DNA of 64,000 nt from a virus: positions 70,123 through 134,122 of IMG/VR virus record IMGVR_UViG_3300002920_000062; one strand, written 5' to 3'. This document shows, piece after piece, positions 3,434-9,829 of this stretch. The notes under the pieces are model-generated. The model saw nothing but the letters and a program-made list of their open reading frames with translations. It ran no database searches and was not told the DNA's origin. The translations under genes were made by a program, and so were the position numbers. How positions within the stretch are numbered: the stretch's first letter is position 1; every line of letters begins with the position of its first letter.

Positions 3434-4768
3434 TCACTTTTCATGTTCATCGTAATATGCGTAGGTGCCATGGGGCGGGATGATATCTCCTGAACCATAA
3501 ATAATCCAAGTTGTATCCGTATAGTCCGGATCTCCCCAACGATGACAATAGCCGTCAGTGAAGATGATAAGACGAGTAGGAACCTCGCCCACTTCCTTGA
3601 GATAATTGTAGATACAATCAAAGTCAGTACCACCCCCACCCATCAGGTCGTACTCCTCAATGTTTTCCATGTTCTCGGAAGTAAATTCTTGGACGTTATA
3701 TACTTTGGTGTCAAAAGTGCCGACCTTGAGCTTGTAGCTATCAAATGCATCCATCATGCCTGCAACTTCGCTGATAAACTGCATACCCTGCTTCCGGCTA
3801 ATAGAGCCTGACATATCAATCATGACCATAACGTCAATTTCCTCACCGGGGGTCATACCAGGCATAATCGCGTCCATATGCCAAGAACGCCTTGACGGGC
3901 GCATCCAAGAATAATTGGTCTTGATAGCCGAAGTGAGATTGGTCTGAATCAACTCACGCCACGGCATAACAGGTTCAGTAAGCTCCTGAATAATTCGACG
4001 AATTCCGGCAGGAACATCACCGGGATTTTTCTCTTGCTGTATAGCCGAAATCATCGCCTGAATAAGCTCTTGGCGGGCTTCCTCAAGATCTTTGTCAGAC
4101 ATTTTCGGACGATTGTCGCGTTGTTCGTCGTCCTCACCACCGTCCTCTAGGATATCGCCGTCATCGCTGCCGAGCTTGTTCTGGCTGACCTGTTGCCGGC
4201 TTTCATCATCATCTCCTTCATCGAGGTGATGGTCAATCATCTGTCTAATCAAGGCATTGAAGTCAATCTTGTTGGCATTCTTCATGAGGTCGTCATAGAT
4301 AGCCTCAGAAGTCATGCCATGGTACTTCTTGTCATAGAGACAAGGAACAGTGGTAATCATTTCACCAATACGGTGCTGATAAAGGTCAGCATTAACCGCG
4401 AAGTCAGCGGCGATATTCCAAACCATATGGTCTCGGTGTGCCTTACGACCCAAGTGATCATAAACAACGTGAAGCAACTCGTGACCAAAAAGAAACTGGA
4501 TTTCCTTGACACGAAGCATGTTGATGAAACGGCTATTGTAGTAGAAATTCCTGCCATCGGTTGCAGCAGTAGAAAGCCAATCGTCACTATTGACAAGCTT
4601 CAAACGAACAGCAAGGTTACCAAAGAACGGGGAACTCATAAGCATAAAAGTGCGCGCAGTAATCATCTTTTCACGCGCCTCATAGTCTACACGACTATCA
4701 GTAGGACCAATGAGATTATCAAGCTTATCATTGCGTTCGCGCTTTGATGCAGTAGTATTGCTGGCCAT
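3434..4768 (-). CDS. Metallopeptidase-like (HExxH) plus vWA domain protein, partner of MoxR ATPase
   Basis: GHELLH motif, AATDG, MIDAS-like IDMSGS, GGGGTDF, IIFTDG; next to a MoxR-type ATPase. Confidence 0.9.
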   Translation of the reverse strand: MASNTTASKRERNDKLDNLIGPTDSRVDYEAREKMITARTFMLMSSPFFGNLAVRLKLVNSDDWLSTAATDGRNFYYNSRFINMLRVKEIQFLFGHELLHVVYDHLGRKAHRDHMVWNIAADFAVNADLYQHRIGEMITTVPCLYDKKYHGMTSEAIYDDLMKNANKIDFNALIRQMIDHHLDEGDDDESRQQVSQNKLGSDDGDILEDGGEDDEQRDNRPKMSDKDLEEARQELIQAMISAIQQEKNPGDVPAGIRRIIQELTEPVMPWRELIQTNLTSAIKTNYSWMRPSRRSWHMDAIMPGMTPGEEIDVMVMIDMSGSISRKQGMQFISEVAGMMDAFDSYKLKVGTFDTKVYNVQEFTSENMENIEEYDLMGGGGTDFDCIYNYLKEVGEVPTRLIIFTDGYCHRWGDPDYTDTTWIIYGSGDIIPPHGTYAYYDEHEK

Positions 4769-4793
4769 ATAAACTCCTGTTGTTAATGTAACT

Positions 4794-4822
4794 TGTATAT
4801 CAGTTTCCGACTTTTACGTCAA
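4794..4822 (-). promoter_or_regulatory. Sigma70-like early promoter for the vWA gene (second copy ~5520-5548 for the chimeric gene)
   Basis: Minus strand TTGACG-N17-TATACA, followed by AGGAG RBS and ATG. Confidence 0.7.
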
Positions 4823-4840
4823 GTGTTTTTACAGAACATG

Positions 4841-4871
4841 AAAGAAATAATGGGGGACTAAACCCCCCATT
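4841..4871 (-). terminator. Rho-independent terminator (second copy ~5567-5598)
   Basis: Minus strand AATGGGGGG-TTTAGT-CCCCCATT hairpin followed by ATTTCTTT. Confidence 0.7.
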
Positions 4872-4918
4872 TAATAGAGCCGAAATCCCCGTCGCTATCT
4901 TCAGGGTTAGTCCTTGAG

Positions 4919-5494
4919 TTAAATATACTTGCCGTAATTCTCAGTAAGACGACCCATCGCAGTCAACCGGCGTGGGTCAACGGGGAACTTATAAGGGAAT
5001 AGGTAAACATTAAGGGCAATCTTAGCGCCCAGAATAACCAGTTCTTCCTCGAAGTTGTCCATCATATAATTCAAGAAGTTGTCGAACATCTTGTGAAACT
5101 CTTCATTATCGAAGTTATCGCTATTGAGATAATCACGAAGTTCGTTGCACATAGAAACAATAAGAAAGTACATTACAAAAATATCCCTGGTGTTGAGTTT
5201 CTTTACCTTGCCGGTCAGAATGTCAATGGGCTTGGGCATATGACAAGCAATGTCAATATTTTCATCCTGGATAAGGTCACTAGCGTGATTGGTCTGAATC
5301 AACTCACGCCACGACATAACAGGTTCAGTAAGTTGCTTAACAATTCGATGAATGCTGACGGGAACATCACTGGAATTTTCCTCTTGCTGTGCATAAAAAA
5401 TCATCGCCTGAACAAGCTCTTGGCAAACTTCATAGTCTACATTGTCAAGCTTATCATTATATTCGCGCTTTGATGCAGTAGTATTGCTGGCCAT
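4919..5494 (-). CDS. Chimeric vWA(N-terminal fragments)/MoxR(C-terminal) protein
   Basis: Begins MASNTTASKRE like the vWA gene, contains QELVQAM..LTEPVMSWRELIQTN (vWA), then SDLIQDENID and HMPKPIDILTGK..LTENYGKYI (MoxR). Confidence 0.85.
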   Translation of the reverse strand: MASNTTASKREYNDKLDNVDYEVCQELVQAMIFYAQQEENSSDVPVSIHRIVKQLTEPVMSWRELIQTNHASDLIQDENIDIACHMPKPIDILTGKVKKLNTRDIFVMYFLIVSMCNELRDYLNSDNFDNEEFHKMFDNFLNYMMDNFEEELVILGAKIALNVYLFPYKFPVDPRRLTAMGRLTENYGKYI

Positions 5495-5633
5495 ATAAAC
5501 TCCTGTTGTTAATGTAACTTGTATATCAGTTTCCGACTTTTACGTCAAGTGTTTTTACAGAACATGAAAGAAATAATGGGGGGACTAAACCCCCCATTTA
5601 ATAGAGCCGAAGCCCCCGTCACCGTCGTCAAAA

Positions 5634-6731
5634 TTAGTCCTTGAGGTAAATATACTTGCCGTAATTCTCAGTAAGACGATCCATCGCAGTTAACCGGTGT
5701 GGGTCAACGGGGAACTTGTAAGTCTTGAGGGCAACCCTAACGCCCATGATAACCAGTTCCGTTTCGAAGTTGTCCATCATATAATTCAAGAAGTTGTCGA
5801 ACATCTTGTGGAACTCTTCGATATCACGGTTATCGCTATTGAGATAAGCACGAAGTTCATAGCACATAGAAACAGCAAGCGAATACATCGCCGAGATTTC
5901 CTTGGTCTTGAGATTCTTTTCCTTGCCGGTCAGAATGTCAATGGGCTTGGGCATATGCTGGGCAACCTTACGATGAGCCATGAACTTGACAGCAAGACCA
6001 TCGCCAACAGCACCCGAAACTAGGGTAAGTAGGGTATTCTTATCGATATTGTCGTCCTGAATCAGGTCGCTAACGAAAGTCCACGAACGCGGAGTAGCAA
6101 ACGCACGACTCGAAGACTTGGCGTCGAAGTCATACAGATCCTGCTTAGCGAACGAGAGATAACCAACAACGTCCTTATGGATGCCCTTTTCAATGGCCCA
6201 TTCTTGCCAGCTTTCAAAGTCCGGCCTCATTTCAATGTGGATAAATCGATTAGCAAGTGGCATGGGCATACGATAAGTAACTCCCTTGTCACTATCCCGA
6301 TTACCGGCCGCGATAATCACAACGTTGTCGGGAAGAACATACTTGCCAACGCGACGATTTAGAACCAGCTGATAACCAGCAGCCTGAACCGCGGGAGGAG
6401 CAGAGTTCATTTCGTCAAGGAAAAGAACAACGACGGGATACTGATCGGCAAGTTCTTGCGAAGGAAGGTCAACAGGCTCGGCCCAATCCATCTTGACGAT
6501 TTCCTTGTTATAGTAAGGAATACCACGAATGTCAGTAGGTTCCATCTGAGCCATACGAAGATCGACCATGACACCGCCAAGCTCATTGGCAATGCTTTCA
6601 ACGATCTCACTCTTACCGATGCCCGGAGGGCCCCAAAGGAAGACAGGACGCTTTGCCCGGAACGCAGTTAGAATGGCCTTACGGGCCTGTACCGGAGTAA
6701 CGGTGTGATTTTCAGAAATCTTTGACGACAT
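5634..6731 (-). CDS. moxR: MoxR-family AAA+ ATPase
   Basis: Walker A WGPPGIGKS, Walker B LFLDE, AAGNR, LANRF, FATPRSW; upstream TTGACT-N17-TAGAAC promoter-like site. Confidence 0.92.
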   Translation of the reverse strand: MSSKISENHTVTPVQARKAILTAFRAKRPVFLWGPPGIGKSEIVESIANELGGVMVDLRMAQMEPTDIRGIPYYNKEIVKMDWAEPVDLPSQELADQYPVVVLFLDEMNSAPPAVQAAGYQLVLNRRVGKYVLPDNVVIIAAGNRDSDKGVTYRMPMPLANRFIHIEMRPDFESWQEWAIEKGIHKDVVGYLSFAKQDLYDFDAKSSSRAFATPRSWTFVSDLIQDDNIDKNTLLTLVSGAVGDGLAVKFMAHRKVAQHMPKPIDILTGKEKNLKTKEISAMYSLAVSMCYELRAYLNSDNRDIEEFHKMFDNFLNYMMDNFETELVIMGVRVALKTYKFPVDPHRLTAMDRLTENYGKYIYLKD

Positions 6732-7096: not shown

Positions 7097-7245
7097 GCCA
7101 CTATTTATATAGATTTTTGGGTAGATGTCAACTACTTTATTTGATGATACTAGAATAATCCTTAGAATATAAACCCCTGTTGCTTAAGGTAACTTGTCAT
7201 CTACAAGTAAAAAGGTAAATCTGCTTTTTGAATACTTTGGAATTG

Positions 7246-9273: not shown

Positions 9274-9339
9274 ACAGTATTTAGCACTGTATGACTAATA
9301 AAGTTTCTTTTAAAGTTTTTTAAGCCAAAATCTATCAAA

Positions 9340-9695
9340 AAGTCAAACTTATGCTAGCATGTAGTAGTCAAGTGTTAGTTGATTCTGTTTCAAAGCTCAA
9401 CTAACAAAGCTCATGTTAAGTTATGCTGCTAGAGCATACTCAACAATGTCGTTATCATTTGCGACATTTATTTTTATGGTCTATATGCGACCAACCAATC
9501 AGTCTAAGTTGTCCTATTATTTAGCCGTCGATTCCCATATCAGGCCCATCAACGCTAGTGGATAAATTCATCTATATTACCGTCCCCAACCTTCCCTGTT
9601 GTTGGGTACTAATATCTGCCACTAGCGATGGTGGACCTGCCCGGATTCGAACCGGGGTGCGCGCCAATTTTATTGACTCCTATCATCAACTGATA
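9340..9695 (-). ncRNA. ssrA: Circularly permuted two-piece tmRNA
   Basis: Minus-strand order: T-arm CCCGG-TTCGAAT-CCGGG, CAGGTCC-A-CCA (ends 9629), intervening hairpin (9553-9561/9619-9627), 5' end GGGCCTG..ATCGACGG (starts 9547), tag ANDNDIVEYALAA* (9463-9422). The acceptor stem has G3.U. Outer ends are approximate. Confidence 0.92.
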
Positions 9696-9829
9696 GTTTA
9701 TTTATCCATAAGACTACCAATAATGTCAATAATTTTGTGCCTAGGATTGTGATACAAGACAGCAAATTTGCCAGACCGTGACTATTAATTTAGACATTAT
9801 GTCAGTTAATTTAATAATTGTCATCTGTT

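Follow-up and report, generated by a model that had tools for sequence, protein, structure and literature searches.

In a 64,000-nucleotide stretch of viral DNA (positions 70,123 to 134,122 of IMG/VR record IMGVR_UViG_3300002920_000062, hereafter the window), an open reading frame of 191 codons that lies between the genes for a MoxR-type AAA+ ATPase and a metallopeptidase-vWA protein is composed wholly of pieces of those two neighbors. The frame almost certainly originated in a tandem duplication of the moxR 3' end, the intergenic spacer and the vWA 5' end that was later trimmed by deletions. On balance, we favor reading the product as a young, stand-alone MoxR-tail gene, born at the duplication junction, whose tail domain is under selection and which possibly acts as a modulator.

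The source record spans 179,497 bp and carries 16 tRNA genes; all six of the proteins checked from the region around the chimera are singletons at 90% identity. The flanking genes are the MoxR AAA+ and metallopeptidase-vWA pair known from jumbo phages (PHROG 1297 and 1314; PF13203 and PF09967), for which the available text of the published account proposes a role in virion assembly (PMC7824862). Pfam and Foldseek both place the upstream parent among AAA+ ATPases, and over ~255 residues it shares the fold of NorQ and CbbQ (Foldseek E 3e-9), the ATPases of the NorQ-NorD and CbbQ-CbbO systems (PMC9976466, PMC13036017; PDB 9qh4, 6l1q). Unlike those proteins, the phage ATPase adds a tail of ~105 residues, which in the parental model forms a discrete helical domain (residues 256-361) behind the AAA+ lid, and it is this part that the chimera keeps. 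The downstream parent is matched over its whole length (3434-4768) by PHROG 1314 (E 6e-107), where the label reads 'HNH endonuclease'; judging by Pfam, this is very probably a mislabel.

Segment structure and origin of the chimera

Codon mapping resolves the chimera into six parental segments (Table 1), with DNA identities to the parents of 85-96% and E values of 4e-41 to 1e-166, far beyond chance. The 600-nt deletion that precedes segment 3 lies at an in-frame E-A-R microhomology, where an 8-nt in-frame match is probable (codons 30-32 as they stand in relative L113 versus codons 230-232 of the gene itself), and it took out the peptidase core. For junctions 1, 3 and 4, exact microhomology was considered and rejected, as nearby in-frame repeats of 4-8 nt fail to give the observed products. 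Segment 3 stops just short of a conserved stretch of the vWA protein, residues 288-309, that we take, by analogy, to be its putative finger region. Beyond the cross-gene junction, segment 4 agrees with the parental MoxR at 23 of 30 nucleotides and 9 of 10 amino acids, all seven differences falling at third positions and six of them being synonymous. The divergence of this segment (5252-5281) is far above the gene average; descent from another allele and strong local constraint are both possible. The 75-nt deletion ahead of segment 5 took out two lid helices of MoxR, chimera residues 82-191 correspond to MoxR 256-361, and a new stop (TAC>TAA), placed four codons ahead of the parental one, removes the last four residues.

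Table 1. Features of the moxR/vWA region (positions in the window; control signals are predictions)
Feature	Position	Strand	Remarks
Parent 1, intact MoxR-type AAA+ ATPase	5634-6731	-	365 aa; PHROG 1297
Spacer copy 1	5495-5633	-	predicted control region ahead of the chimera
Signals in spacer copy 1		-	terminator-like hairpin 5575-5598; -35 TTGACG 5543-5548; extended -10 TATACA 5520-5525; RBS 5500-5504
Chimeric ORF	4919-5494	-	191 aa; between moxR and the vWA gene; apparent junction gene of a tandem duplication
Segment 1	5441-5494	-	vWA codons 1-18; first 11 codons same as parent
Segment 2	5429-5440	-	vWA codons 27-30 (chimera aa 19-22); after 24-nt in-frame deletion
Segment 3	5282-5428	-	vWA codons 231-279 (chimera aa 23-71); after 600-nt deletion
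Segment 4	5252-5281	-	MoxR codons 221-230 (chimera aa 72-81); after cross-gene junction
Segment 5	5006-5251	-	MoxR codons 256-337, C-terminal helical domain; after 75-nt in-frame deletion
12-nt tandem duplication	4994-5005	-	decayed copy of Y-K-F-P codons; from codon mapping
Segment 6	4922-4993	-	MoxR codons 338-361; then gained stop
Spacer copy 2	4769-4918	-	predicted control region ahead of the intact vWA gene
Signals in spacer copy 2		-	terminator-like hairpin 4849-4871; -35 4817-4822; -10 4794-4799; RBS 4774-4778
Parent 2, intact DUF2201_N metallopeptidase and DUF2201 vWA protein	3434-4768	-	444 aa

With only residues 221-230 and 256-361 of MoxR present, the AAA+ core (Walker A and B, H2 insert, arginine finger) is missing; the deletion of vWA 31-230 removes the HExxH peptidase core, and the vWA-derived sequence ends at about residue 279, so that the 288-309 stretch and the vWA domain with its MIDAS are lost as well. 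A Pfam search of the chimera gave no match. All 191 codons are open, and the promoter-like site, RBS and terminator are intact, so that the usual lesions of a pseudogene are absent. A preliminary description of this DNA, made from the letters alone, had proposed a mosaic of vWA and MoxR pieces that had dropped its Walker, HExxH and MIDAS motifs and was catalytically dead; codon mapping and DNA identity to the parents bear this out, and neither ATPase nor peptidase activity is possible for the protein. Some details need amending. The four-residue insertion LFPY is indeed present, but it arises as a tandem duplication of the parental Y-K-F-P codons whose first copy has decayed; the piece given as SDLIQDDNID is MoxR-derived, but the chimera has E where the parent's D was quoted; and the MoxR sequence restarts at V256, not at HMPKPIDIL (H259).

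A feature that the preliminary description had missed is the duplicated spacer. An 87% direct repeat (4715-5242 and 5441-5957) spans the moxR/vWA boundary, spacer included, and its 150-bp core, the same in both copies except for one G, holds the terminator hairpin, the promoter-like site, the RBS and the first 11 codons. Judged by these signals, spacer copy 1 would drive the chimera and spacer copy 2 the intact vWA gene. The position of the promoter-like site is kept in relatives L113, L115 and L118 and partly in L114, and the site went unlisted by an automated promoter scan because that scan accepts only -10 sites that end in T. Because a terminator-like hairpin and this conserved promoter-like site sit between them, moxR and the vWA gene are probably not one operon, contrary to what had been supposed. 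At 7167-7197 of the window, a 31-bp stretch that matches the vWA leader and RBS at 90%, ATT replacing ATG, lies upstream of an 89-aa gene; it is perhaps a third, decayed leader copy or a shared leader motif.

TTGAC-type promoter-like sites in this genome are often without T at the last -10 position (T in 14 of 35, minus strand), and at 9330-9723 of the window ARAGORN calls a permuted two-piece tmRNA; the two features would presumably fit an alphaproteobacterial host. Outside the window, at C1 64350-68217 of the genome, lie two paralogues of 428 and 418 aa that are 60% identical overall and share a 515-bp tract at 85%, possibly a conversion tract; an exact-like 74-bp repeat flanks one of the two.

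In the chimera, the 5' part of the downstream gene is joined to the 3' part of the upstream gene, with both parents intact, as in a junction chimera. The geometry of a tandem duplication forces the order vWA-N::MoxR-C, so that the inverted domain order, correctly described before, is automatic and needs no selection. The duplication, with ends near codon 220 of moxR and codon 279 of the vWA gene, almost certainly put a vWA-N::MoxR-C fusion downstream of a further copy of the vWA promoter and RBS; later deletions would have taken out the peptidase core along with two lid helices, and the 12-nt duplication and terminal stop would probably have followed. This mechanism of birth is already known: chimeras born by tandem duplication in Drosophila likewise join a downstream-gene 5' part to an upstream-gene 3' part and are then trimmed (PMC4069613), and bacterial chimeras arise by deletions between paralogues (PMC13626634). 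The present case differs from both in that it concerns a phage, joins non-homologous functional partners, leaves both parents intact and is apparently recurrent at the same gene pair.

The chimera is known from one genome and a single metagenome-derived contig, and its near-identical core is one that an assembler could merge; a unit from a co-occurring variant or a defective DNA might thereby have been threaded into the contig through the shared 150 bp. We consider such a placement artefact very improbable. One base, as well as the flanking sequence, tells the two cores apart, and because both sides of every junction differ from the parents by 6-22%, the chimeric unit is real, long-diverged DNA.

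Relatives and independent tail genes

The ATPases of the nearest relatives are 92, 84, 81, 78 and 77% identical to the parental MoxR, and none of the five genomes (L113, L114, L115, L118 and L119) holds the chimera. In L114 and L118, a plain spacer of 118-129 bp separates moxR from the vWA gene, so that the unduplicated ancestral state is present among the relatives, and L119 has two small unrelated genes at this place. A related ATPase is also present in the PA5oct-like Pseudomonas phages. Across ~313 other loci with moxR and vWA (a partly redundant set), the duplicated piece was found in none; among 106 distinct loci, the gap between the genes is below 250 bp in 69, again without the duplicated piece. 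A third, fused and enzyme-dead gene is absent from these two-gene loci, and it is absent from the available text of the account of the jumbo-phage pair (PMC7824862). At any level of identity, an orthologue of the chimera is missing from a set of 5.8 billion proteins, which yielded MoxR fragments only, as well as from exact look-ups, IMG/VR, metagenome contigs, GTDB contigs and phage records; a set of 1.84 billion representatives held no orthologue and one analogue, P0361. Because the chimera carries residues private to its own parents' lineage, and not those of the relatives, it was born locally; its branch has a dS of 0.23-0.29, as against 0.71 between its own moxR and that of L113.

The moxR/vWA spacer looks like an insertion hotspot. 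Exactly between the two genes, L113 (7123-8616) and L115 (7152-8633) carry on the minus strand a PD-(D/E)xK-type nuclease-like gene of 493-497 aa; the two proteins are 61% identical to each other, give weak matches to MTES_1575, Vsr and DUF7487, and belong to a family with four members elsewhere in the chimera-bearing genome. Such neighbors would suit a reading in which the DNA matters and not the protein, the duplication having been left by repair after, or serving to protect from, a homing-type endonuclease directed at the gene boundary. We find this scarcely credible, as no nuclease remnant was found in the chimera region and frame retention and amino-acid constraint would be left unexplained. 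A further moxR-vWA locus, on a low-coverage contig (L365:4272-6192), has both of its genes apparently broken (230+162 aa and 114+123 aa).

The analogue P0361 (L363, JGI 3300061867) joins vWA 34-97 to MoxR 237-362 at a single junction; its start lies one base beyond the stop of its own moxR, and a second sample gave an overlapping contig with the identical sequence. Like the chimera, it consists of an N-terminal vWA piece and a MoxR tail, lies directly behind its own moxR and has lost the HExxH and Walker motifs; unlike the chimera, it retains a different vWA piece, has but one junction, is much older and comes from a distant lineage. No vWA gene follows it on its 1.7-kb contig. Synonymous sites between P0361 and its parent are saturated while dN is 0.29, indicating that this fusion is older and constrained. 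Because gene order permits vWA-N::MoxR-C as the only junction product, the repeated architecture proves little, and it is retention and a shared surface change that carry weight for recurrence. P0361 replaces S280, A281 and Y291 as the chimera does, and Y291N is found in both, although none of 161 full-length ATPases has Asn at position 291; the overlap of lost residues has p=0.055. Two more proteins, P0309 and P0375 (Logan ERR10503178 and ERR10503146), are made up solely of a tandem pair of MoxR tails (230 aa), are encoded 26 nt behind a same-strand gene and have Asn or Asp at position 291 of the first copy. That moxR/vWA loci repeatedly spawn enzyme-dead, tail-freeing genes by junction duplication, which converge on Y291N and make up a new modulator or decoy class of this chaperone system, is conceivable, though we hold it doubtful. 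The literature searched contains no account of such a chimera or of a recurrent enzyme-dead MoxR-tail gene.

Selection on the reading frame and the tail domain

All five length changes in the chimera are multiples of three, and its coding sequence contains no indel of 1-2 nt. For the four changes without a microhomology explanation, the naive chance that all are in frame is 1/81; the substitution spectrum as observed predicts 2.8 stops, and neutral simulations give a probability of 0.035-0.054 for none. Because the chimera was picked for being open, these statistics overstate the case, yet even so inflated they point to selection on frame. By maximum likelihood, the chimera branch has an omega of 0.46 (0.35 with the parent branch freed), which exceeds the background of 0.085 (p=1e-6) and lies below 1 only marginally (p=0.045). 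The rejection of omega=1 leans on segment 4 (9 codons), which supplies much of the synonymous signal, and without this segment the deficit of amino-acid changes has p=0.1. Pairwise, omega is 0.42 for MoxR 259-361 and 1.33 for vWA 231-277.

In the MoxR part, two of 19 changes (S280F and Y291N) are unseen among the 161 full-length ATPases, where ~10 would be expected neutrally (p=0.0007); neutral simulations likewise predict 28 changes that introduce residues seldom or never seen in close homologues, against 19 found (p=0.002), and hydrophobic-core sites are changed at four positions where nine would be expected (p=0.027). Twelve family-invariant positions are changed in the chimera, and within the tail domain by itself such sites are not significantly avoided (p=0.13-0.30). 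Selection on the chimera is relaxed, though probably still present, and we think it likely that the MoxR tail is, or until recently was, selected at the protein level. The earlier argument from frame retention to selection stands in that frame and constraint exceed neutral expectation, although ascertainment inflates the frame statistics. A dN/dS near 1 together with a lack of orthologues had been named as the result that would tell against function; the lack is real, while dN/dS is below 1, if only marginally.

The main rival is that the chimera is a decaying scar of the duplication, a functionless junction ORF kept open by luck and parental conversion, or one selected briefly after birth. 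It is a singleton, brought to light by ascertainment across a very large scan; its omega is 4-5 times the background, it has radical changes at invariant sites (including S280F, A242Y and T324E), and its GC>AT drift (47 versus 21 changes) is typical of relaxed sequence. One junction is explained by in-frame microhomology, and tandem duplications often undergo secondary deletions (PMC4069613). Constraint could also be mimicked if the intact parent had converted the chimera in patches, and the two share stretches of 47 and 37 nt without a difference (p=0.005). Decay does not readily account for length changes confined to multiples of three with the sole stop four codons from the end, for the depletion of family-alien and core substitutions, or for the existence of a second, older fusion of like design. 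The chimera has, furthermore, persisted through a dS of ~0.25 despite flanking direct repeats whose core looks recently homogenised. We judge the scar to be an unlikely explanation, though one to be taken seriously.

What the freed tail might do

AlphaFold2 folds chimera residues 81-191 with pLDDT mostly of 70-95 and with helices as in the parent; for residues 1-80 no homologues entered the fold prediction, which makes their low pLDDT uninformative. As far as sequence comparison can tell, the constrained part looks to be the helical domain from the MoxR C terminus, kept intact as aa 82-191, with the vWA leader neutral. The parent matches the consensus at 22 broadly conserved positions of the tail, of which the chimera has changed three, S280, A281 and Y291, whose spacing suggests one face of helix 279-297; the conserved patches 259-270 and 304-325 are kept. 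In an Atlas shape search, 143-146 chimera residues (within 17-191, including the low-confidence region) align to full-length ATPases at TM 0.61, and in such a model the vWA-derived helices might stand in for the deleted lid helices; because of that region we gave the hint no weight. A role as membrane anchor was considered and rejected, the maximal 19-residue hydropathy of 1.36 being below that of the parent (1.46).

The preliminary description took both the vWA and the MoxR pieces to be kept as interaction surfaces, in a dominant-negative inhibitor or an adaptor bridging the MoxR ring and the vWA protein. Loss of the catalytic motifs with the frame kept would suit such a protein, as would the conservation of vWA 231-277 in the family and the binding, in NorQD, of the partner's N-terminal part to the C-terminal part of the ring subunit (PMC13036017). 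However, ring and vWA protein in the solved complexes touch through the H2 insert and through a finger lodged in the pore (PMC9976466, PMC13036017). Because finger, pore and H2 insert are all missing from the chimera, the claim that only interaction surfaces were kept is unsupported, although the tail patches 259-270 and 304-325 are retained; what was kept is a whole folding domain and a near-neutral leader. Constraint on the vWA piece is not clearly visible (omega 0.76-1.33, with the invariant A242 and the near-invariant R12 replaced), and the independent fusion P0361 keeps vWA 34-97 instead. Entry into the ring as a protomer requires the AAA+ core, without which the chimera cannot join as a dead subunit. 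A predicted complex of chimera and vWA protein scored 0.00, which speaks neither way. We regard this bridging or poisoning role as quite improbable.

A job unrelated to the chaperone is improbable too, namely that a tail produced from a strong promoter serves to decoy or bind some host protein, such as a defence sensor for the phage ATPase. The chimera's own promoter copy, the replacement of conserved surface residues with the core kept, the excess of multi-hit codons (11 versus 6, p=0.011) and the existence of the stand-alone double-tail proteins P0309 and P0375 would all agree with it, but no omega above 1 is seen in the tail domain, and a structure search with this domain returned generic helical solenoids only (best Z 7.5).

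In the account we favor, that of a young stand-alone tail gene, the selected unit would be the MoxR C-terminal helical domain, and each junction would have had to be in frame because all four lie upstream of it, the vWA leader mainly supplying start signals. Such an ATPase-free tail could titrate a partner or client of the MoxR tail and so damp or retarget the phage MoxR-vWA chaperone. We put forward only tentatively, from the sequences, that the chimera modulates the phage's own chaperone pair.

The MoxR and metallopeptidase-vWA pair is widespread in jumbo phages, and in the available text of its account its function, virion assembly, is a proposal only (PMC7824862); the chimera offers a ready natural construct with which to probe it. 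The locus also records, with unusual clarity, how a gene is born in a phage: parents, duplicated control region and five successive in-frame edits all lie within 3.3 kb. If recurrence holds, the MoxR tail domain would be a separable functional module.
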